A DNA stretch of 64,000 nucleotides from a bacterium (GCA_021778295.1 JAJYCP010000001.1:66513-130512), one strand, 5' to 3'; shown: positions 2,666 to 27,611, counted from the first letter of the stretch. Numbers and translations are program-made. The notes: generated from the letters alone by a model not told the origin.

Positions 2666-3535
2666 TTAATTTCCTTCCGAATGAACCGTCGTTGTGGAAG
2701 ACCACGTAGGACCGGTAGAGCCTTCACTGTTTTGCACGCAGGTGCCACCCTCATCGACAATCGGACCGAGCTGGCAGTGGAGACCTTCGGCGCACTGCGG
2801 CGCATTTTGGATAAAGCCGCCGCAATGCGCGCCTACGCCCACTTTCGCGTTCTCTCCTCCGCTGACGTCACCGGTCGAAGAGGCTGTGGAGTCGGAAGAC
2901 GAGGAAGAAGAAGAACCGATATCACCGGTCGAAGAGGCTGTGGAGTCAGGAGACGAGGAAGATGAAGAAGAATCTCCCATCTCGCATTCCATCTCCAATT
3001 CCTTATTTATGTCTTCGCGGGTCAGCGGTCCGACATTTCCATAGCCCGTGGACTCGGAATTACCTGAAGAAACGATGCCTTGAGCGGCCTGCCAGCGTTG
3101 TACCGCCGCTAACGTCGACGAACCGAAATAGCCGGTGATGGCGTCTTCGGGGTAGATACTCTTATCCTTCCCGAGGAACGCTTGCAGACGCGAAACTTCA
3201 CCTTCCGTGGTCCGATCGGTAGAACCGATGCTCATATTAGTAGAAAGCAGGGTGCAATTACCGTTACTATTTGAGGTCGGCGTAGTATTGCTCGAAGGAT
3301 TCGAGCCATTCGATGTCGAAGTTTGCGTTGAAGTCGCCGTATTTTCGAGCGCAGCCTGCACATTTGCAATCGTTGCCGTATCGGCGCCAAATGCTTGCAG
3401 GAGATTAAGTATGGCCTGAATCTGAATCGTACTCAGGGATGCGGCTTGGGCAAAAGAAGCGCCGCCTAAAAGGCTGACGGCGAATGCCGCGCCGGCCGCT
3501 AGGGAAAGAAAACGATGATTTCTAAAGAAGTGCAT
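2666..3535 (-). CDS. Secreted protein with a peptidoglycan-binding (PG_binding_1-like) domain, an acidic Ser/Asp/Glu-rich repeat linker and a Cys-rich C-terminal domain.
   Basis: Signal peptide MHFFRNHRFLSLAAGAAFAVSLLGGASFAQAA. PG-binding-like motif LQAFLGKDKSIYPEDAITGYFGSSTLAAVQRWQAAQGI. Repeats (SSSSSS..DSTASSTGD) x2. C-terminal 8-Cys domain. Start chosen at the in-frame ATG at 3535. Confidence 0.6.
   Translation of the reverse strand: MHFFRNHRFLSLAAGAAFAVSLLGGASFAQAASLSTIQIQAILNLLQAFGADTATIANVQAALENTATSTQTSTSNGSNPSSNTTPTSNSNGNCTLLSTNMSIGSTDRTTEGEVSRLQAFLGKDKSIYPEDAITGYFGSSTLAAVQRWQAAQGIVSSGNSESTGYGNVGPLTREDINKELEMECEMGDSSSSSSSPDSTASSTGDIGSSSSSSSDSTASSTGDVSGGENAKVGVGAHCGGFIQNAPQCAEGLHCQLGPIVDEGGTCVQNSEGSTGPTWSSTTTVHSEGN
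2868..2975. repeat. Tandem 54-bp repeat x2 inside the CDS (encodes the duplicated Ser/Asp-rich segment).
   Basis: The unit tcaccggtcgaagaggctgtggagtc(g/a)g(a/g)agacgaggaagaaga... occurs twice in tandem with a few mismatches. Confidence 0.7.
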
Positions 3536-4765: not shown

Positions 4766-5295
4766 ATATCCATAGATCCGCAAAGTTTCTTCAAATGCGC
4801 AAGCGCTCGATGAATGCGGACTGCGGCGACATTTTCCGATATGCCGAGCGCTCCGGCAATCTCTTTCGCCGAAAGTCCGTCGCTATAACGCATCGTAAGC
4901 GCCGCGCGATACGCATCCGGCATGAGAGAGATGAATGTCCGTATCTTTTCCAACATGAACTCATCGTCCAGTTTCTCTTCTTTTTCTGCGCGGCTTCCCG
5001 CGGCGACGAGCGTATTCGCCCATGCAGATGAGTCTTCAAGCAAGGAATCGAGAGATTCTTCCTTCGTTCGTCGGTACTCATCAATAATAAGGTTATTGAG
5101 CACTCGGTAGAGAAAACTCTTCCAATTGCGCACTTCATTGCCTTCGCGCACATAATCCCATGCTTTCAGAAATGTATCCTGAGTGAGATCGATCGCCCGG
5201 TCGCGGCCCTTAATGCGAAAGGAAGCATGCCGAAACAAAGCGTCGGCGTATTCGTCAAAAGCTTCAAGAAATGCGTTTTCGTAAGGGCGAGTCAT
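4762..5295 (-). CDS. RNA polymerase sigma-70 ECF-family sigma factor.
   Basis: Region 2 (DLTQDTFLKAWDYV) and region 4 HTH (LSAKEIAGALGISENVAAVRIHRALAHLKK). Start assigned to ATG at 5295; ATGs at 5328 and 5361 are also possible. Confidence 0.8.
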   Translation of the reverse strand: MTRPYENAFLEAFDEYADALFRHASFRIKGRDRAIDLTQDTFLKAWDYVREGNEVRNWKSFLYRVLNNLIIDEYRRTKEESLDSLLEDSSAWANTLVAAGSRAEKEEKLDDEFMLEKIRTFISLMPDAYRAALTMRYSDGLSAKEIAGALGISENVAAVRIHRALAHLKKLCGSMDI

Positions 5296-19780: not shown

Positions 19781-19876
19781 TTGACAACATTCTCCTCTTG
19801 GACAAACTACCCATAGACTGTTCTTTGTCATGGATTGTCCGTGACCAGGGTAACAGTTGCTTTGTGGAGATGTGTG
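19781..19876 (+). promoter_or_regulatory. Promoter plus conserved 5' leader, module copy B.
   Basis: TTGACA(19781)-N16-CAAACT-N6-AGACTGTTCTTTG...GGTAACAGTT...GGAGATG. Same spacing to the ATG as copy A. Confidence 0.5.
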
Positions 19877-20461
19877 ATGAAACACATTCATCATGAATTA
19901 CCGTGGGGTAGCAATTCTTCTCCAGTCCTTGCAATCGGCGGCGGTGATGGCGGTTGTTATCAGAAAATCCAGGCGCTCGATTTGGAACCCATCATGGTCA
20001 AACTCATGGATCCGGTCGAGGGTGAAGGATGGACCCTTGAGCAGGTGCGCGAGACGGAGGTCTGGTACAAGCGGTTTCTGTACCTCAACGCCGTCTATCC
20101 AGATCGCTCAATCGTGCCGACTCATGCTATTGACTCGTTCTGGCACTACCACATCCTCGACACGCTGAAGTATGCTGAGGACTGCCAGATCGCGTTCGGC
20201 TACTTCCTGCACCATTTCCCGTACTTCGGTATGCGCGGTGACGAAGACCAACAGAACCTCCTGGATGCGAGCGAGCAGACTTGGGATCTGTTTCGCGAAC
20301 ACTTCAACGAAGAACCGGTAATCCTGCACGGAGATGTGAGCAAATGCGTTAAATCGTGCACTGGCAAAACATGTTCTCATTGCAAGGCTCCAACCTGTTC
20401 CAGTGGTCCGAAGGTGCGGAGCAACGAACGTCCGCGACTGGCTGTTGCGGTGGCCGTGTAG
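19877..20461 (+). CDS. Glycine-rich-domain-protein-like (DUF1399-like) protein with a Cys-rich C-terminal tail.
   Basis: Motif AIDSFWHYHILDTLKYAEDCQIAFGYFLHHFP. Tail CVKSCTGKTCSHCKAPTCSS. SD GGAG lies before ATG 19877. Confidence 0.45.
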   Translation: MKHIHHELPWGSNSSPVLAIGGGDGGCYQKIQALDLEPIMVKLMDPVEGEGWTLEQVRETEVWYKRFLYLNAVYPDRSIVPTHAIDSFWHYHILDTLKYAEDCQIAFGYFLHHFPYFGMRGDEDQQNLLDASEQTWDLFREHFNEEPVILHGDVSKCVKSCTGKTCSHCKAPTCSSGPKVRSNERPRLAVAVAV

Positions 20462-20522: not shown

Positions 20523-21404
20523 TTATTTTAGAAAAGCATCGAACCAGTTAACAATTTCTTGATCCACTTGTGTCTCGTATTCTTCTAATGCATGTGTACC
20601 CCGTGGATATGCTATGAGCTTGAAATCACGGAAATGTCCAGCTGCTTTTTCTGCAAACCGAAATGCTTCGCGTGAGTCAACGCGCCAATCTGCCATTCCA
20701 CACAACACTAAAAGTGGCACAGCACGCGGAATCTCTTTATACCAATAGATGACTGAACGTTTTTTCTTTTCTTCACGTGAACCACCAAACATTTTCTGAA
20801 AATGTTTTCTCATTTCTGGACGGTATGTCTCCTGGAAAAACAAATCGGTAGGGCCAGATACAACAACCGCAGCGCGTACCCATCTTGTTTTCTGAAGCGT
20901 GCGATACGTCATAATACCTCCGCGGCTAAAGCCATACATGCCGATTTTCTTTGTATCGCAAAAAGATAGTCCTGCGATAATTTTTTTTAGATTTATCACA
21001 TCATGAAGATCCAAACCACCCATCTCATCAACGCCTTCACCTCCAGCAACACCAGAATATTGAGATGCGATAACGACATAGCCAGCGCGCGCGAGCGCGG
21101 CAATAGTGCCAGTAAATAACCATCCGATTCGAATTGCGCCAAATTCACCACTACCGCCACGGTTGTACACTACAGTCGGTGCGCGAGCAGTATGTTTCTT
21201 TGGTACAACTATATAGCCCACAACCGCATGGCCTTGAGAAGTGTAAGTGAATCGGTAAGCGGTCATATACTTCTGGTTCTTTTTCACTTCAACGGAAAAG
21301 TCTTGACCGAATCGAGCCCGGAGTTCTCTGGTTATAACGATTTTTCTTACCTCGCGCACGATTGGGACTTTCATAAGATCGCGCAACACAAGATCATCTT
21401 TCAT
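20523..21404 (-). CDS. Alpha/beta-hydrolase of the S9 peptidase/dienelactone-hydrolase type.
   Basis: Nucleophile elbow GFSRGG with downstream Asp and His. 293 aa. TATAGT sits 6 nt before ATG. Low GC. Confidence 0.65.
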   Translation of the reverse strand: MKDDLVLRDLMKVPIVREVRKIVITRELRARFGQDFSVEVKKNQKYMTAYRFTYTSQGHAVVGYIVVPKKHTARAPTVVYNRGGSGEFGAIRIGWLFTGTIAALARAGYVVIASQYSGVAGGEGVDEMGGLDLHDVINLKKIIAGLSFCDTKKIGMYGFSRGGIMTYRTLQKTRWVRAAVVVSGPTDLFFQETYRPEMRKHFQKMFGGSREEKKKRSVIYWYKEIPRAVPLLVLCGMADWRVDSREAFRFAEKAAGHFRDFKLIAYPRGTHALEEYETQVDQEIVNWFDAFLK

Positions 21405-21803: not shown

Positions 21804-22865
21804 ATGGTTCCCGATAACACAATTCTTCTTGAAATTCTGCGAGATGCTTGTCGAGCTCCCTCTGGTGATAATGTTCAGCCGTGGCGTTTCCGGTGGGACG
21901 GCTTGACACTATCCCTCTACAACATCCCTGGCATCCATAACTCATACCTTGATTTTGAAGAACGTGGCGCATATATCGCACATGGTGCGCTCCTCGAGAA
22001 CCTCGCGATTGCCGCCCCACATTACGGCTACAACGTCTCGATAATGCTCTTCCCGGATCAGGGGATGCCCGACCTTGTCGCACGCGTCGCCTTTGCGCCT
22101 AGCGCTACATATGACGACCCGCTGTATGCGAGCATTCAGAGACGCGCAACAAACCGTCGACCGTATGCATCACGCGCACTTGCGTCCGATGCACGTGCCG
22201 CGCTCAAGGACGTTGCGATGCCTGAGGGTATGACGCTCGTTCTCATTGAAGATGCTGCAAAAAGAGAGACGCTCGCGCCGCATATAAGCGCAATCGAGCA
22301 GCTCTTGCTCGGCCATGCGGCTCTGTCGAGCGCATTTTTCGCTCATATCGTGTGGACGAAGCGTGAAGAACGTGCGAGACGTAGCGGATTCTACGTAAAA
22401 ACCATGGAGTTCAATCCAGTGCAGGCATTCGTATTCAAGCTCGCGAGTAAGCCCTGGCTTATGCGCGCGTTCCGCAAACTTGGGCTCCCCGCACTCATTG
22501 CGAGTGAAGATGCTAAGATATATGGGGGAGGCTCGGCACTCGGGGGACTGTATGCGCCAGACTTTTCCAAAACCAGCGCACTTGCGCTCGGACGTGCACT
22601 TGAGCGCGTATGGCTTACTGCGACGACGCACGGACTCGCGTTCCAACCACTCTTCGGTACCACCATGATGGGGTACAAGTCGCGCCGCGGCGAAGCGATG
22701 TTCCTCTCGGATGCGGAACGTGCCGCCATTGAAGTAAGCGCGCTCTCTCTTGAGACGGCATTCAGAAATACGCGCGATACACCGACGCTCATCTTCCGTG
22801 TCGGCTATGCCCAGGAACCGAGTGCGTATACGTCTCGGAAGGAACCGAACATAGTTTATAATTAG
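21804..22865 (+). CDS. Nitroreductase-family protein (tandem/large form).
   Basis: N-terminal SGDNVQPWRF nitroreductase motif. A second nitroreductase-like half gives 353 aa in total. Confidence 0.65.
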   Translation: MVPDNTILLEILRDACRAPSGDNVQPWRFRWDGLTLSLYNIPGIHNSYLDFEERGAYIAHGALLENLAIAAPHYGYNVSIMLFPDQGMPDLVARVAFAPSATYDDPLYASIQRRATNRRPYASRALASDARAALKDVAMPEGMTLVLIEDAAKRETLAPHISAIEQLLLGHAALSSAFFAHIVWTKREERARRSGFYVKTMEFNPVQAFVFKLASKPWLMRAFRKLGLPALIASEDAKIYGGGSALGGLYAPDFSKTSALALGRALERVWLTATTHGLAFQPLFGTTMMGYKSRRGEAMFLSDAERAAIEVSALSLETAFRNTRDTPTLIFRVGYAQEPSAYTSRKEPNIVYN

Positions 22866-22872
22866 GGCACCC

Positions 22873-24471
22873 ATGGGTGCCCTTGCGAATTTTGATCTCT
22901 TGTCGGTGGGCGTTGCCATCGCGGGCACGCTTGTGCTCGGGTTCGTCATTTATTTCACAGACCAGAAGAGCAGTACGAACCGCATTTTCTTCGCGTTCGC
23001 ATTCGTCACCGCAATATGGGGCTTGCTCAACTATCTCAGTTATCGCGTCGAAGATCTATCCATCGCGTTCGCACTCCTACGCTTCGAACTCGCGCTCGCC
23101 GTGTGGCAAACGTTCATAATTTTTCGACTCCTGCTCATCTTTCCGGATCACAACGACACGCTTCCACGGCGCTATCTGCTCGCGCTTGTCGTGTACACGG
23201 GCGTCATATCCGTGCTGTGCCTTACGCCGTTCGTCTTCGAGCGTATCACTGCAGTTACCGCCACTGGGTATATCAAAGACATAGCCGTCGGGCCGGCAAT
23301 CGCGCTCTTCGGCGTCACAAGTATAGGGTTCGTCCTTGCAGGATGGGTAGTGTGCGCCCGAAAGACGTTCCGCCTCATGGGCACACAGCGTGCGCAAACG
23401 GGATTCTTCCTGCTCGGAGCGATTACGATGTTCTTGCCAATCATCATCCTGAACTTCATCTTCCCAGCATTCTTGCGGGATTCGAGGTTCGTTCCGTACG
23501 GTGCGGTCTCGATATTCCCGTTCGTACTGTTCACGTCCTACGCAATCCTGCGTTTCCATTTGTTCAACATCAAGGTCATCACGACTTCCATACTCGTATT
23601 CGTGCTTTCCGTCGTTTCATTTGGCCAGGTCCTTTTCTCGGATACGTTGCCTACGATGCTGTTCCAGACAAGCGTTTTCGTCCTCGTCCTCGTCTTCGGC
23701 ATCAATCTGATACGGAGCGTCATACGCGAAGTAGAGCAACGAGAGAAAATACAGAAGCTCGCCGAGGAGCTCGCGGCGACCAACGAGCGACAGGAGACGC
23801 TGATTCACTTCATCGGGCACGAAGTCAAAGGGTTCCTGGCCAAGGACGCAGGCGCGTTCACTTCGCTTGTTGACGGCGATTTTGGCGTATTGCCCGGGGA
23901 ATTGAAACCGCTTGTGGAACGCGCGCTCGTTGAGACGCGGCAGGGCGTTGCGTCGGTGGAGGCTCTCCTAAAGGCGGCAAACTTGAAGAAAGGGACCGTA
24001 ACGTATACAAAAGCGCCGTTTGACCTCAAAGAGCTCGTTGCGGGGGCCGTAGAGAAAGAGAGGCCTGCGGCTGAGAACAAAGGGCTCGCGCTCTCGTTTA
24101 CAGCCGACGACGCGTCGTACCAAATGACGGGGGATAAGGGGCAAATCAACGACCACGTCCTGCGCAACCTCATAGATAACGCTGTCAATTACACGCCATC
24201 GGGCTCGATTGCAGTATCGCTCAGGCGCGAGGGCGACAAGCTCGTGTTCGCAGTGAAAGACAGTGGCGTCGGCATCACCGACGAAGACAAGCAGCGTCTT
24301 TTCACCGAGGGCGGCCACGGCAAGGATTCGCAGAAGGTGAATGTCCATTCCACCGGCTATGGTCTTTACATCGCAAAGCAGATAGTCGAGGCGCACGGCG
24401 GCACCATCCGCGCCGAGTCTGAAGGGCAGGGCAAGGGCTCGACGTTTATCGCAGAATTTCCGGCCCAGTAA
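22873..24471 (+). CDS. Sensor histidine kinase with a multi-TM N-terminal sensor.
   Basis: About 7 TM helices. H-box HFIGHEVKG. N box NLIDNAVNYT. G1 DSGVGI. G2 GYGLYIAKQIVEAHGG. No response regulator adjacent. Confidence 0.8.
   Translation: MGALANFDLLSVGVAIAGTLVLGFVIYFTDQKSSTNRIFFAFAFVTAIWGLLNYLSYRVEDLSIAFALLRFELALAVWQTFIIFRLLLIFPDHNDTLPRRYLLALVVYTGVISVLCLTPFVFERITAVTATGYIKDIAVGPAIALFGVTSIGFVLAGWVVCARKTFRLMGTQRAQTGFFLLGAITMFLPIIILNFIFPAFLRDSRFVPYGAVSIFPFVLFTSYAILRFHLFNIKVITTSILVFVLSVVSFGQVLFSDTLPTMLFQTSVFVLVLVFGINLIRSVIREVEQREKIQKLAEELAATNERQETLIHFIGHEVKGFLAKDAGAFTSLVDGDFGVLPGELKPLVERALVETRQGVASVEALLKAANLKKGTVTYTKAPFDLKELVAGAVEKERPAAENKGLALSFTADDASYQMTGDKGQINDHVLRNLIDNAVNYTPSGSIAVSLRREGDKLVFAVKDSGVGITDEDKQRLFTEGGHGKDSQKVNVHSTGYGLYIAKQIVEAHGGTIRAESEGQGKGSTFIAEFPAQ
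24398..24461. repeat. 64-bp direct repeat, copy 1 (last 21 codons of the HK gene).
   Basis: Identical to 26573..26636 (gcggcaccatccgcgccgagtctgaagggcagggcaagggctcgacgtttatcgcagaatttcc). Confidence 0.85.
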
Positions 24472-24568
24472 ACGACCCATCTTGATATTTTTTAATTTTG
24501 TGATATACAAAGGTCAGAAATGACTTTCGAAAGTAGTTCTTTTCCACCCAGCCTGTGGGAGTCAAGTC

Positions 24569-25495
24569 ATGTCTCAGAAAAACGTTTTGATCGTTAGTAA
24601 CACTGACGATGCACATGCTACGGCAGTCCAGGATCGACTTAGGGAACGCTCAATACTGGTGGGCCGTTTGGACAGCGACACGTTCACTTTTGGACAGCAT
24701 GTATGGCGCATCCGCTCAGACACAAACCTGGAATCAAGCTCCTCCTGGTATGTTCCAGATGTGAATGTCATCTGGTATCGGAAAGTGAGGTTCCCAGAAC
24801 CAACTAATGCAGTCCGATCCTTTCTAAATCAGGAAGCTCAAGGGTTGTTTGACTGTATCCTCGCCGATTATCACGACTGTAGATGGGTCAACCCGCGTGA
24901 TCGACTTGCTGAAGCAAGGTCCAAGATCGTGCAGTTGCAACGCGCTAAAGGTGCAGGACTGCGTATTCCCGATACAATCGTCACCACCAGCGTGGAAGCA
25001 TTAGGAGAATTTTCGGCTCGCCACAATGGTCAAATCGTTGCAAAACCAATCCAAGCACAAATTGTGGGTTCAGGCGACGATGCCCTAGTCATTGGGACCA
25101 GGCAGTTAAGCTTGGGGCATTTCGAATCAGCGGTCAGATTCTCTCCCTGTTATGCGCAAGAGCGGTTGTCATTGAAGTCAGAGATCAGGGTCGTTGCTTT
25201 CGGAGACCGGCTCCATTCTTTTCGGCTTACTGCGAAAGAAAAAGCCGATGATCTCAAGCAGCTCAAGTTGAGCAAAATTGATCATGAGCGATGCGAATTG
25301 GATGAAAGCACCTCACGAAAGATTCGCTCAGTCATGTCGCTCTACGGTTTGGAGTTCGCTGCAATTGATCTCGCCGTCATCGACGATGAGGAGCCCGTGT
25401 TTTTAGAGCTCAATCCGAACGGTCAGTGGCTGTGGCTGCAGTATATGACCGGTGAGAACCTAATCGACCCGTTCATAGACCTGCTATGTCCTTAA
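24569..25495 (+). CDS. MdnC/MvdD-like graspetide (microviridin-type) ATP-grasp macrocyclase.
   Basis: SD GGGAG. Matches MdnC block by block: VLIVS..DD, VIWYRKVRF (compare VWYRRMRY), and the C-terminal FAAIDLAVIDDEEPVFLELNPNGQWLWLQ (compare YGAIDMIVTPDERYIFLEINPVGEFFWLE). Confidence 0.8.
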   Translation: MSQKNVLIVSNTDDAHATAVQDRLRERSILVGRLDSDTFTFGQHVWRIRSDTNLESSSSWYVPDVNVIWYRKVRFPEPTNAVRSFLNQEAQGLFDCILADYHDCRWVNPRDRLAEARSKIVQLQRAKGAGLRIPDTIVTTSVEALGEFSARHNGQIVAKPIQAQIVGSGDDALVIGTRQLSLGHFESAVRFSPCYAQERLSLKSEIRVVAFGDRLHSFRLTAKEKADDLKQLKLSKIDHERCELDESTSRKIRSVMSLYGLEFAAIDLAVIDDEEPVFLELNPNGQWLWLQYMTGENLIDPFIDLLCP

Positions 25496-25559: not shown

Positions 25560-26303
25560 ATGATAAAAGTTGCATCTAACAAATTGACAGCATTGACCAA
25601 AGTATTGCCACAACCGCTTGATTTTATAGTCGTTGGAGAAATGCACGGTTCCAGACAAAATGCGCCTCTCGTACAAGAATTGTTATTGACCGTTCTTACA
25701 GAACAGAAACCAGTAACCGTCGCTTTTGAATGGCTGCTCACCGATCCCGAACTCGATGCGTTGCGAAGATATGTATGTGGTGGCGAGACACCAGCGCAAC
25801 TATCAACTTTCTTTCTGGACTCCGATGGACGTTTTACTTTGGAACACATCGCCTTATTGAAGTGGATTCGCGCCTATAATGCTACGCACCATAATCTTAT
25901 TGATCTATACGCATTCGATAAGCCAAGCAAGAGCGGGGCATCAGATCAAGTCATGGCTGACTCATTACGTACTTATAAAAAGCGCCACCCCGAGTCACTA
26001 ATTCTGATTGAGACTGGCAATATGCACGCAAGAAATTCAATCGATATGTCTATAGGCGCCGGGCAGGTATCAATGGCTACGATATTGAAAAAAGACTATC
26101 TTGTGTTTTCCATTTTCTTGCACTATATACAGGGCAAGATATTGGTAGAAGGAGAAAATAGAGATGTAATGGAGGCGACGTCACAACAAGAGGGTCCGAG
26201 AACTTATTTTGATGCCATGATTGAGATACCTGTTTCGGAGCCAGCTCGAAATCCTAATGACTTGACGGAGATTTTTCAATTGCTACAATCCCGGCCAGCG
26301 TGA
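25560..26303 (+). CDS. ChaN/TraB/Tiki-superfamily protein (putative metalloprotease-like).
   Basis: Motif FIVVGEMHGSRQNAPLVQELL resembles the GxxH core of PF04187. TATAAT sits 7 nt before ATG 25560 (the track ORF begins at GTG 25497). Confidence 0.45.
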   Translation: MIKVASNKLTALTKVLPQPLDFIVVGEMHGSRQNAPLVQELLLTVLTEQKPVTVAFEWLLTDPELDALRRYVCGGETPAQLSTFFLDSDGRFTLEHIALLKWIRAYNATHHNLIDLYAFDKPSKSGASDQVMADSLRTYKKRHPESLILIETGNMHARNSIDMSIGAGQVSMATILKKDYLVFSIFLHYIQGKILVEGENRDVMEATSQQEGPRTYFDAMIEIPVSEPARNPNDLTEIFQLLQSRPA

Positions 26304-26333
26304 ATCCCACGCTGCCTTGATACGGAGAAACGT

Positions 26334-26477
26334 ATGTTGCCATTCCTTTTGGAGTTTGCCAACAAACCAGATCTCGAGCCGGAGCTTCTCCAGCGAAAGG
26401 ATCTTTCCCACGAAGAGGTGGTCGATATGAGCACCTTCCACACCCGTTGCGGTCACCCTCGCCACATCGACGACTGA
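26334..26477 (+). CDS. Candidate graspetide precursor peptide (47 aa), not in the ORF track.
   Basis: GGAG lies 6 nt before ATG. Translates to MLPFLLEFANKPDLEPELLQRKDLSHEEVVDMSTFHTRCGHPRHIDD*. The LPFLLEFA leader resembles the PFFARFL recognition helix of microviridin precursors. The C-terminus is rich in Ser/Thr and Asp/Glu. Followed by a terminator. Confidence 0.55.
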   Translation: MLPFLLEFANKPDLEPELLQRKDLSHEEVVDMSTFHTRCGHPRHIDD

Positions 26478-26495
26478 TTGTATTCGGCCGCGCCA

Positions 26496-26532
26496 GAACC
26501 CTCGCAATCAAATGCGAGGGTTTTCTTTTTAT
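26496..26532 (+). terminator. Rho-independent terminator after the precursor gene.
   Basis: AACCCTCGCA-atcaaa-TGCGAGGGTT followed by TTCTTTTT. Confidence 0.65.
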
Positions 26533-26572
26533 GCGTAACCGAGGAAGTGTCGGTCCTGATGTGGAACACACA

Positions 26573-26636
26573 GCGGCACCATCCGCGCCGAGTCTGAAGG
26601 GCAGGGCAAGGGCTCGACGTTTATCGCAGAATTTCC
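26573..26636. repeat. 64-bp direct repeat, copy 2 (orphan HK 3'-end fragment).
   Basis: Identical to 24398..24461. In the HK frame it encodes GTIRAESEGQGKGSTFIAEFP followed by AG*. Confidence 0.85.
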
Positions 26637-26732
26637 TGCGGGATAGATTCAAAGAATCTCGTGCCCCGGCCTGATTCAGGCGCTTTTGATTTGCAAAACA
26701 AAATAGTGCTACAGTATGGGAATTAGCAGATA

Positions 26733-27023
26733 ATGATTGAGAATACGCACATGGAAAAGGCACTTGTGGGCGTCGCGGCAGGAGTAGCGCTCTTTGCCGC
26801 CACAGCGGTTCCGGCATTTGCAGCAGCGAATCAAGGATATGCGTCCGGTTATCCTCACGCAATCGCGAATACTATCTGTGCAAACCATGGGGCTTTCGCA
26901 GCATTTGCAGGGAGTCCGGGAATTATAGAGGAATACGTTGATGCCGATCAGGCAGCCGGCATTTCGCTCGGCTCGGAGACGGGTCCGGCAAACAGCGGAC
27001 TTTGCGGCAATCCGCAAAACTGA
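26733..27023 (+). CDS. Small secreted hypothetical protein.
   Basis: Signal peptide VGVAAGVALFAATAVPAFAAA. TTGATT-N18-TACAGT promoter upstream. Strong terminator downstream. Confidence 0.5.
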   Translation: MIENTHMEKALVGVAAGVALFAATAVPAFAAANQGYASGYPHAIANTICANHGAFAAFAGSPGIIEEYVDADQAAGISLGSETGPANSGLCGNPQN

Positions 27024-27030
27024 TTCTGTT

Positions 27031-27078
27031 TCTTTAAAGCACAACACCCGCCAAGTGGCGGGTGTTGTGCTTTAAAGC
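27031..27078. terminator. Bidirectional rho-independent terminator.
   Basis: AAAGCACAACACCCGCC-AAGT-GGCGGGTGTTGTGCTTT. Confidence 0.7.
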
Positions 27079-27341: not shown

Positions 27342-27539
27342 AGGAGGATGCATCTGCTCCGGGAGCAGGACCATGAGTACATTCCTCGAAGCTTACAGCT
27401 TCAGTACACCTTGCGGATATTTTGCTCCAAATCTTCGCAAAATATGCTCGCAAGGTCTTCGAGTCCTGCACGGAAGCGCCCTGCGCTTCCTTCCCGTCGC
27501 AGTAACAAAAAACACCCGAAGGGGTGTTTTCTCGTTCTG

Positions 27540-27611
27540 CTCCGGGAGCAGGACTCGAACCTGCAACCAACGCCTTAACAGGGCGCTGCTCTACCATTGA
27601 GCTATCCCGGA
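27540..27611 (-). tRNA. tRNA-Asn (anticodon GTT).
   Basis: Cloverleaf folded by hand: acceptor TCCGGGA/TCCCGGA, D-arm GCTC-AATGGTA-GAGC, anticodon arm GCGCC-CTGTTAA-GGCGT, T-arm GCAGG-TTCGAGT-CCTGC, discriminator G. No encoded CCA. Terminator hairpin AAACACCCCTTCGGGTGTTTTTT lies downstream. Confidence 0.85.

Follow-up and report, generated by a model that had tools for sequence, protein, structure and literature searches.

The open reading frame at positions 26334-26477 of the window, that is, of the whole 64,000-nt stretch of bacterial DNA analysed here, is a protein-coding gene under strong purifying selection, and its 47-residue product is probably the precursor of a graspetide that is processed by an ATP-grasp enzyme encoded in the same operon, 838 nt upstream. 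The two genes and that of an erythromycin-esterase (Ere)/TIKI/ChaN-fold hydrolase travel together as a mobile cassette of about 2.1 kb, the hosts of which are Patescibacteria. Rather tentatively, and with somewhat less than even confidence, we propose that the product would be the first natural omega-thioester graspetide, an 11-residue 'mini-microviridin' with Arg at P1, served by an Ere-fold enzyme as dedicated leader peptidase or (thio)lactone hydrolase. The assignment to the graspetide class is made on genetic grounds. The elements of the region are the following.

22873-24471, + strand: 7TM-receptor histidine kinase gene, upstream of that for the ATP-grasp protein.
24394-24464, + strand: direct repeat, copy 1, 71 nt, at the end of the 7TM histidine-kinase gene before its final two codons; left cassette border.
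24482-24509, + strand: promoter-like site preceding the ATP-grasp gene (TTGATA, 16 nt, TGaTATACA), read from the sequence and of putative function.
24557-24561, + strand: GGGAG 5' of the ATP-grasp gene, 7 nt before its ATG.
24569-25495, + strand: gene of the ATP-grasp peptide macrocyclase (graspetide synthetase), 308 aa, assigned by NCBIfam, PDB profile search and AF2/Foldseek.
25560-26303, + strand: gene of the Ere/TIKI/ChaN-fold hydrolase, 247 aa; alternative starts GTG 25530 and GTG 25497.
26262-26289, + strand: promoter-like site (TTGACG, 16 nt, TG-TACAAT), from a consensus scan, 10/12 matches.
26324-26327, + strand: Shine-Dalgarno GGAG, followed by 6 nt (AAACGT) and the ATG of the precursor gene.
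26334-26477, + strand: precursor peptide gene, 47 aa, MLPFLLEFANKPDLEPELLQRKDLSHEEVVDMSTFHTRCGHPRHIDD.
26495-26534, + strand: intrinsic terminator with a 12-pair stem, a 6-nt loop and a T-rich tail.
26569-26639, + strand: second copy of the direct repeat, an orphan of the kinase 3' end with a frame that would close on …EFPAG and a stop; right cassette border.

The sequence-only reading had described this frame with its GGAG-N6-ATG start, and both the start and the translation are present exactly as quoted there; in homologues, too, the start has a GGAG or AAGGAG at the equivalent place before it. The strong terminator that it had placed downstream is also found, as a hairpin (stem 26495-26524, then CTTTTTAT) that begins 17 nt past the precursor stop codon. 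Its description of the gene as unannotated holds for the NCBI assembly copy of the locus (L004, GCA_021834265.1), in which the gene is uncalled, but not for several ENA and Logan contigs (L003, L005, L006), on which it is called with a length of 47 aa. As to the promoter-like site at 26262-26289, it is contained in the 3' part of the hydrolase gene and ends 45 nt 5' of the precursor ATG, its TTGACG hexamer coincides with conserved Leu-Thr codons of that gene, and sites of this kind are no more numerous in the region than in shuffled sequence; that it is a promoter is only a possibility. The same consensus scan did not report the site at 24482-24509, and the 97-nt spacer before the ATP-grasp gene is 93% identical in a related locus, L010. 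Other readings of the region were considered as well: an antisense 202-aa frame (26254-26862) was rejected as a gene, being not conserved and carrying stops in relatives, and the Rfam matches between 24000 and 29000 were only a tRNA-Asn and chance miRNA-model matches on a palindrome.

Homologues of the peptide are scarce in protein collections, a word-indexed search of 5.8 billion proteins returning only two, both of 47 aa (94% and 70% identity), and most members of the family were recovered by six-frame scans of ATP-grasp loci and by a full HMMER scan. The latter, over 1.84 billion cluster representatives, added 12 homologues, all of 40-59 aa and ending in HTRCGHPRxxDD, while the former revealed the frame in every locus of the clade with sufficient flank. 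About 30 distinct homologues share the plan of leader, linker and core described below. At 25 loci, with 15 distinct core DNA sequences, the frame lies in the same position with an identical stop site. Within the 13-codon core, pairwise comparison of the 15 DNA versions gives 685 synonymous versus 139 non-synonymous codon differences, synonymous change being saturated whereas 9 of the 13 positions are invariant in amino acid; at such positions Gly and Pro are encoded by all four codons and Arg by six. In a further homologue (P0124) Met replaces F35, the first of these nine otherwise invariant positions. In agreement, the pN/pS ratio (six 47-codon versions) rises from 0.056 in the core to 0.16 in the leader motif and 0.33 in the linker, and stops interrupt each of the other five frames in relatives. 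Purifying selection excludes a chance ORF.

One could still suppose that the frame encodes an unmodified small protein, such as a regulator or an antitoxin, and that the ATP-grasp enzyme acts on another substrate. The peptide indeed belongs to no Pfam family and finds no NCBIfam model at E up to 0.1, and its modification is a prediction. However, the succession of a conserved leader, a variable linker and an invariant C-terminal core is the typical layout of a RiPP precursor, the linkage to a graspetide-synthetase homologue is strict in more than 20 loci, and the precursor switches side, from downstream to upstream, yet stays beside the ATP-grasp gene. We thus consider such an explanation, in any of its forms, barely credible. 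The graspetide-precursor reading is instead supported by the anatomy of the peptide, the relevant parts of which are given below.

26340-26360, + strand: leader recognition motif P3-F-L-L-E-F-A9; family consensus P-F-L-[LVMI]-x-x-A.
26436-26474, + strand: core F35-H-T37-R38-C39-G-H-P-R-H-I-D46-D47, with nine of 13 positions invariant across 15 DNA versions.
26442-26444, + strand: codon of T37.
26448-26450, + strand: codon of C39.
26469-26471, + strand: codon of D46.
26472-26474, + strand: codon of D47.

In the main clade, with about 26 distinct sequences, 0-12 variable N-terminal residues precede the P-F-L-[LVMI]-x-x-A motif, in which P3 and A9 never vary and at least 90% of 28 sequences keep F4 and L5. 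There follows an acidic linker of 20-30 residues, variable in both sequence and length, and then the core F-H-[T/S]-R-C-G-H-P-R-x-[I/R/V]-D-D with the stop codon immediately after it; no cleavage motif is recognisable before F35 in the family alignment. The leader of the window's peptide, PFLLEFA, is identical to the microviridin motif PFFARFL at 3 of 7 positions and has its hydrophobic residues in the same pattern, and the P-F-L-h-x-x-A form fits the graspetide leader signature Phhx(1,2)h (PMC8939145). Position 37 is Thr, but Ser in one lineage, and together with C39 it makes up the sole nucleophiles that the ATP-grasp enzyme could use in the main-clade core, which offers two invariant acceptors, D46 and D47; the Asp pair is never replaced by Glu and never reduced to a single residue. 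In this respect the candidate residues differ from those first put forward: the last 15 residues hold only two Asp and not three, D31 lying outside them, and S33, T34 and D31, which had been counted among the donors and acceptors, vary freely, the conserved set being Thr37, Cys39, Asp46 and Asp47. The core also holds three His residues instead of the two that had been mentioned.

More distant relatives, the ATP-grasp enzymes of which are 28-38% identical, carry the precursor upstream and not downstream of the ATP-grasp gene, and allow the essential features of the core to be narrowed down. Their peptides read …IPFLLANA…FWTKCKDKKGKSTDD in L101 and L023, …PLMLLQA…YKTRCSNGGNQTNPDD in L047, …PFLLEKA or PFLLQKA…T-[KR]-S-G-S-C-G-G-S-x-D-D-x-x in L022 and L183, and …PLLFEKR…TSCQTTFSPVDYGPDD, of a TSC…PDD type, in L181. 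Only the Thr, the residue at +1, a Cys or Ser at +2 and the terminal Asp-Asp survive among them, the residue after Thr being Arg or Lys in all hydrolase-linked relatives and Ser in L181. Within the main clade the Cys is almost never exchanged for Ser, which speaks for a thiol-specific role; the one case among about 26 sequences is L018, from a Kaiserbacteria MAG, which reads FHTRSGHPRSRDD through a single G-to-C change (TGT to TCT). This case is suggestive but weak, since its closest relatives carry Cys at that position, and it could be an error or a dead allele.

A thioester would account for the conservation of the Cys, as would a free thiol that serves as a metal ligand, as a warhead or in a disulfide. 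A metal site formed by the Cys and His residues had been suggested from the sequence, and within the main clade H36-x-x-C39-x-H41 is in fact invariant; the idea is nonetheless weakened, because in distant relatives the His are lost while Cys, Thr and Asp-Asp stay. The same observations bear on a monocyclic graspetide, with a single Thr37-Asp ester and a free Cys39 that would be a metal ligand with His36 and His41, a zinc-binding warhead or the site of an intermolecular disulfide. The near-absolute preference of Cys over Ser, pointing to thiol-specific chemistry, the invariant H-x-x-C-x-H of the main clade and the earlier prediction of single-ester graspetide precursors (PMC8939145) are all in its favour, but distant relatives keep T-x-C…DD without these His, two invariant Asp leave one acceptor unexplained, and Ser stands at the Cys position in one member and at T+2 in one subfamily. 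On balance we regard this monocyclic form as rather unlikely. The bicyclic reading, with both Thr37 and Cys39 as donors, is the more economical, as these are the sole usable donors and exactly two acceptors are invariant, although two rings closed on adjacent acceptors, D46 and D47, would be unusual, and one of the two Asp could instead have a part in recognition.

The association of the peptide with its two partner genes was analysed across the family. In tblastn searches with the window proteins, the order ATP-grasp, hydrolase, peptide was found in all main-clade loci with sufficient flank, and clustering of the neighbours of 18 family loci showed the ATP-grasp and hydrolase genes to be the only ones common to all 18; an S9 peptidase and a nitroreductase, considered as conserved neighbours, are sporadic only. 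Within the first 171 ATP-grasp loci retrieved, no T-[RK]-[CS]…DD peptide was found unless the hydrolase gene was there too, a regular-expression match in L071 being spurious. The frame stays beside the ATP-grasp gene in homologous loci down to about 30% ATP-grasp identity, and the sole exception is one locus represented on two contigs (L016, L093), in which the ATP-grasp gene is followed by an IS4-like transposase in place of the two downstream genes. Thus homologous loci devoid of the frame, the finding that would have spoken against the original proposal, are confined to this transposase-disrupted case. In the window itself, contrary to what had been stated, the ATP-grasp gene is not directly adjacent to the frame, since the hydrolase gene sits between them. 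Nevertheless the linkage, the leader signature and the conserved core together support the proposal made there of a precursor for the nearby ATP-grasp enzyme, which would yield a lactam-free graspetide from a peptide with a microviridin-like leader.

The ATP-grasp protein is a graspetide-synthetase homologue. Against NCBIfam it matches TIGR04187 (2.4e-50), MvdC (7e-34) and MvdD (9e-29), but all scores are below the curated cut-offs (for the SAV_5884-type TIGR04187, 171.5 bits against 350) and the protein thus falls in none of these named subfamilies; a test for the pre-ATP-grasp domain PF21068 gave a weak match. A profile of 44 sequences, in the alignment of which 39 columns are invariant, including ELNPNGQWLWL, matches every solved graspetide synthetase in the PDB, from AMdnB (6.6e-42), MdnB (8e-40), CdnC (1e-35) and MdnC (5e-35) to PruB (1e-26) and PsnB (4e-11). 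In agreement, the AlphaFold2 model (pLDDT 92) has MdnC, AMdnB, PruB, CdnC and PsnB as its best Foldseek matches, with TM-scores of 0.75-0.82, RimK, LysX and ArgX being lower at 0.60-0.67. Viral contigs contained a single distant ATP-grasp match (27% identity) and no cassette.

The hydrolase is more divergent from known families. It scores 27.4 bits against PF04187 (ChaN/TIKI), just under the gathering threshold of 27.7, and 22 of 27 homologues match this family at E below 0.01, while PF05139 (erythromycin esterase) is matched by one of the 27, weakly (E 0.0075). Its alpha/beta TIKI fold retains an intact 2His/2Glu catalytic set, the residues E27-x-H29 (GEMHGxxQN), E57 (AFEW) and H156 (GNMHA) being invariant; the set is essential in RRSP and common to Ere enzymes (PMC6254334). 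As these four residues correspond to the catalytic set of RRSP and Ere enzymes, the 247-aa protein is, by analogy with those enzymes, most likely active as a hydrolase on ester or peptide bonds. Regarding its role, we give an even chance to its being the leader peptidase, which is favoured by the fact that the cassette has no other protease and that site-specific endopeptidases are found among TIKI enzymes. A (thio)esterase that opens the ring, in immunity or editing, is less probable but a serious alternative: the protein is structurally closest to macrolactone esterases and not to proven proteases, and other graspetide loci contain an Ere-like gene in addition to a double-glycine peptidase (PMC8939145), both of which argue against leader removal. 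That it would be a non-catalytic partner seems improbable.

The borders and the mobility of the cassette emerged from the comparison of the window with L010. The two copies of the direct repeat are 97% identical and spaced by 2175 nt, and the same arrangement occurs in L010, where each copy matches L010's own kinase. Nucleotide identity between the two loci is 54% in the nitroreductase-like gene and 62% in the kinase gene, reaches 89-93% from the kinase stop to the precursor stop, non-coding spacers included, and falls to 77% in the second repeat copy and 50% beyond it; at the kinase stop codon it leaps from 62-80% to 89-93%. Between genomes, identity is thus about 90% in the cassette against only 54-64% in the flanking genes, which indicates that the cassette moves as a unit; its G+C content is 5-10 points below that of the flanks. 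Candidate origins for the repeat are a long target duplication, Campbell-type integration and gene conversion. An empty site, with the kinase but not the cassette, was not found among same-species contigs. No transporter or immunity gene is present in the cassette, and PADLOC matched none of its three gene products to a defence-system model.

In two diverged genomes the cassette adjoins the 3' end of a gene for a 7TM-receptor kinase, which raises another explanation, in which the product would be a cyclic signalling peptide of the AIP type, a thiolactone or lactone sensed by the adjacent kinase. Staphylococcal AIPs are Cys thiolactones, and natural Ser-lactone variants exist. Yet the histidine kinase adjoins the cassette only in the window and in L010 and is absent near the other family loci, which share only the ATP-grasp and hydrolase genes, and we have rejected the kinase link as a general feature. 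Moreover, the kinase and the cassette do not co-evolve, as the former is 62% identical in nucleotides while the latter is about 90% identical, and neither an AgrB-like gene nor an adjacent response regulator is found. An agr-type thiolactone system was rejected on the missing AgrB-like gene and on the kinase not being conserved with the cassette, and we judge the signalling explanation highly improbable.

For the preferred graspetide reading, the features described suggest an autonomous cassette of promoter, ATP-grasp ligase, Ere/TIKI-fold hydrolase, precursor and terminator, which might operate as follows. The ATP-grasp enzyme would be docked by the precursor through its PFLLEFA motif, in the way that MdnC is through PFFARFL, and would phosphorylate the side-chain carboxylates of D46 and D47 to acyl phosphates. 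The hydroxyl of Thr37 may then capture one activated Asp in an omega-ester and the thiol of Cys39 the other in an omega-thioester, to give a compact bicyclic cage of residues 37-47. The acidic leader would then be cut off, most likely by the Ere/TIKI-fold hydrolase. The cross-links in the mature peptide, and the residues they join, are inferred from the pattern of conservation, and to the Cys-Asp thioester in particular we give a little less than an even chance. Graspetide synthetases do form thioesters when Cys replaces a donor residue (PMC13097080; PMC12291112), but in the published material considered graspetide thioesters are described only as non-native products so far (PMC13097080).

If formed, the thioester could also be a reactive intermediate, resolved by the Ere/TIKI-fold enzyme or by a nucleophile of the target, with the acyl group passing to an amine to form a lactam or becoming covalently attached to a target protein or cell surface. 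A thioester is in general an activated acyl donor, in an engineered thioester graspetide an S-to-N acyl shift takes place (PMC12291112), and an enzyme of hydrolase or transferase type is strictly co-conserved; but the core has neither a conserved Lys nor a free amine, Ser variants retain the same hydrolase gene, and the suggestion is purely speculative. It appears to us very unlikely. In the proposed bicyclic product, the cage would display Arg38 between two cross-linked residues, in the way that microviridin J displays Arg5 between Thr4 (ester) and Lys6 (amide), which occupy the S1, S2 and S1' subsites of trypsin, respectively (PMC7823629). As T-R-C mirrors T4-R5-K6, the likeliest activity by this analogy would be substrate-like inhibition of a trypsin-type serine protease, although in absolute terms such an activity is doubtful.

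Several consequences follow if these predictions are right. The family supplies a putative precursor for a CPR/Patescibacteria ATP-grasp clade for which published surveys found some loci and missed many precursors, these frames being too short. It is a compact, testable system of three genes, in which the 13-residue core offers two acceptors and exactly two residues as candidate donors. Thioesters made by graspetide synthetases are known only with engineered Cys substrates, which makes their natural occurrence a sharp chemical question; a natural thioester ring, if true, would be a new RiPP linkage type and a reactive handle for peptide engineering. The obligatory partner of the erythromycin-esterase fold ties the chemistry of macrolactone hydrolases to macrolactone peptides, and if the peptide does inhibit proteases, its being encoded on a mobile cassette of episymbiotic bacteria could bear on host interaction.

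Against the background of described systems, we rate the precursor family and its core topology as new with respect to those parts of the published surveys that were accessible, the obligatory partner as unusual, and the linkage type as possibly new. A general review of 2016 reportedly mentions ATP-grasp enzymes with a thiolactone. A literature search returned nothing pairing graspetides with Patescibacteria; one paper does connect graspetides with the CPR. Makarova et al. 2022 described CPR ATP-grasp branches with the leader signature Phhx(1,2)h and, in branch 2, Tiki/TraB genes, noting many loci without identifiable precursor since small ORFs are missed (PMC8939145). Their branches 1 and 2 share with the present loci the kind of organism and the leader signature, but the branch 1 core signature, TxxxTx(6-10)Dx(1-4)D, differs from T-R-C…DD, all their loci contain a 'cluster 23' protein that is absent from the cassette loci, and the motif RCGHPR has no match in the 187 supplementary files of that study that were searched (PMC8939145). 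With RODEO groups 1-43 of Carter et al. 2026 the cassette shares, as far as that survey was consulted, the plan of an ATP-grasp enzyme, a short precursor and a further protein that strictly accompanies them; among the representative precursors given for groups 25-30 and 32-43 none resembles T-R-C…DD, and neither PF04187 nor the core motif appears among the co-occurring families and data of the survey that were examined, which does not prove their absence from it (PMC13097080). Membership in the NCBIfam SAV_5884 subfamily, in which TIGR04187 is paired with TIGR04186 target peptides, was rejected on the sub-threshold score and the unmatched peptide. The Ere enzymes (EreA/B/C, Bcr135/136), at about 400 aa, carry much extra sequence that the 247-aa hydrolase lacks, and whereas Ere, TIKI and RRSP act on a macrolide or on Wnt or Ras, the 247-aa enzyme would act on a peptide macro(thio)lactone or on the peptide bond of a leader.

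The reference system is microviridin J, Ac-ISTRKYPSDWEEW, made by MdnC and MdnB (graspetide group 1). The likeness lies in a partly similar leader helix motif, a Pro followed by an aromatic and hydrophobic residues (PFLLEFA vs PFFARFL), in the donor-P1-donor triplet that opens the core (T-R-C vs T-R-K), with Pro later and two acidic acceptors last, in the basic residue after Thr, comparable to the trypsin-directed Arg5 of microviridin J, and in an ATP-grasp enzyme that is nearest to AMdnB, MdnB and MdnC in profile and fold. The microviridin core T-x-K-x-P-S-D-x-[ED]-[ED] is unmatched, as the precursor core, FHTRCGHPRHIDD, has neither Lys nor PSD, and no microviridin precursor model was matched because the peptide is in no Pfam-A family. 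While microviridins employ two ligases, for the ester (MdnC/MvdD) and the amide (MdnB/MvdC), and a GNAT, the cassette has a single ATP-grasp enzyme and no GNAT, in the window as in all family loci. We have thus rejected the identification of the precursor as a microviridin, for want of the TxKxPSDx(E/D)(D/E) core, the second ligase, the GNAT and a Pfam match. Unlike microviridins, the peptide has no KYPSD motif and no third ring (Ser9-Glu12), places a Cys where the lactam Lys would stand and its Asp-Asp acceptors at the very C-terminus, and is encoded with no ABC transporter gene, with an obligatory Ere/TIKI-fold hydrolase and in patescibacterial hosts.

The three-gene cassette of ATP-grasp, esterase-fold hydrolase and precursor peptide genes is flanked on both sides by a 71-nt direct repeat in two genomes, those of the window and of L010 (like all L-numbered loci, a contig fetched around a homologue of the window's ATP-grasp protein), and the repeated sequence is that of the histidine-kinase 3' end.

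Window 24394-24464 and 26569-26639: 71-nt direct repeat at the cassette borders
L010, about 2964-3034 and 5144-5214: 71-nt direct repeat

In each genome the repeat copies agree with that genome's own kinase, and between the two the cassette is 89–93% identical, whereas the flanking genes reach only 54–64%. The G+C content of the cassette lies 5–10 points below that of its flanks. An empty site, with the kinase gene lacking the cassette, was not found in the same-species contigs searched. In the L016/L093 lineage the hydrolase and precursor genes are absent behind the ATP-grasp gene, which is directly followed by a transposase, and this locus is a decaying cassette.

L016 5062-6513 (-): IS4-like transposase, 483 aa; same lineage also represented by L093

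The island adjoining the cassette varies between strains: L001/L002 (the same as L173/L174) carry, downstream of about 8455, either an AlwI-type endonuclease with a D12 methylase or type I HsdR/HsdM.

Window 27032-27077: inverted repeat with perfect 22-nt arms, CTTTAAAGCACAACACCCGCCA tt TGGCGGGTGTTGTGCTTTAAAG, flanked by orf96 and the tRNA
Window 27539-27611 (-): tRNA-Asn(GTT), about 900 nt downstream of the cassette

The inverted repeat probably acts as a terminator in both directions or as a binding site; in Rfam it has only chance matches to miRNA models. Near the tRNA the window holds PBP and glutaredoxin genes, where closely related strains have different restriction-modification genes instead.

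Window 19835-20461 (+): UCP032817/GRDP-like protein, 208 aa (194 aa as called)
Window 20523-21404 (-): S9 (prolyl-oligopeptidase family) serine peptidase, 3 kb upstream of the cassette
L018 2933-3766 (-): S9 peptidase, second context
Window 21804-24471: two-domain nitroreductase-like protein (353 aa) and 7TM histidine kinase
L102 338-3009; L017 1990-3021; L108 367-609: nitroreductase-like/kinase region

The S9 peptidase, found near the cassette in these two contexts only, could serve as target, resistance determinant or processing enzyme; its GRDP-like neighbour, bordered on the other side by TrmB-type regulators, has a Cys-rich C-terminal tail (…CVKSCTGKTCSHCKAPTCSS…). The nitroreductase-like protein is found again in the vicinity of rather remote ATP-grasp homologues, at about 30% identity, mostly alongside a 7TM histidine kinase, and no response regulator was seen adjoining the kinase in the window.

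L181 encodes a relative of the ATP-grasp protein at 35% identity, with a phage-type integrase close by.

L181 2821-2994, 3001-3978, 3975-4865: locus of the precursor, the ATP-grasp protein and the APH-type kinase-like gene

Here the precursor, encoded upstream, ends in …TSCQTTFSPVDYGPDD and an APH-type kinase-like partner stands in place of the esterase-fold hydrolase; the T-x-C…DD core therefore reaches outside the hydrolase-linked family.
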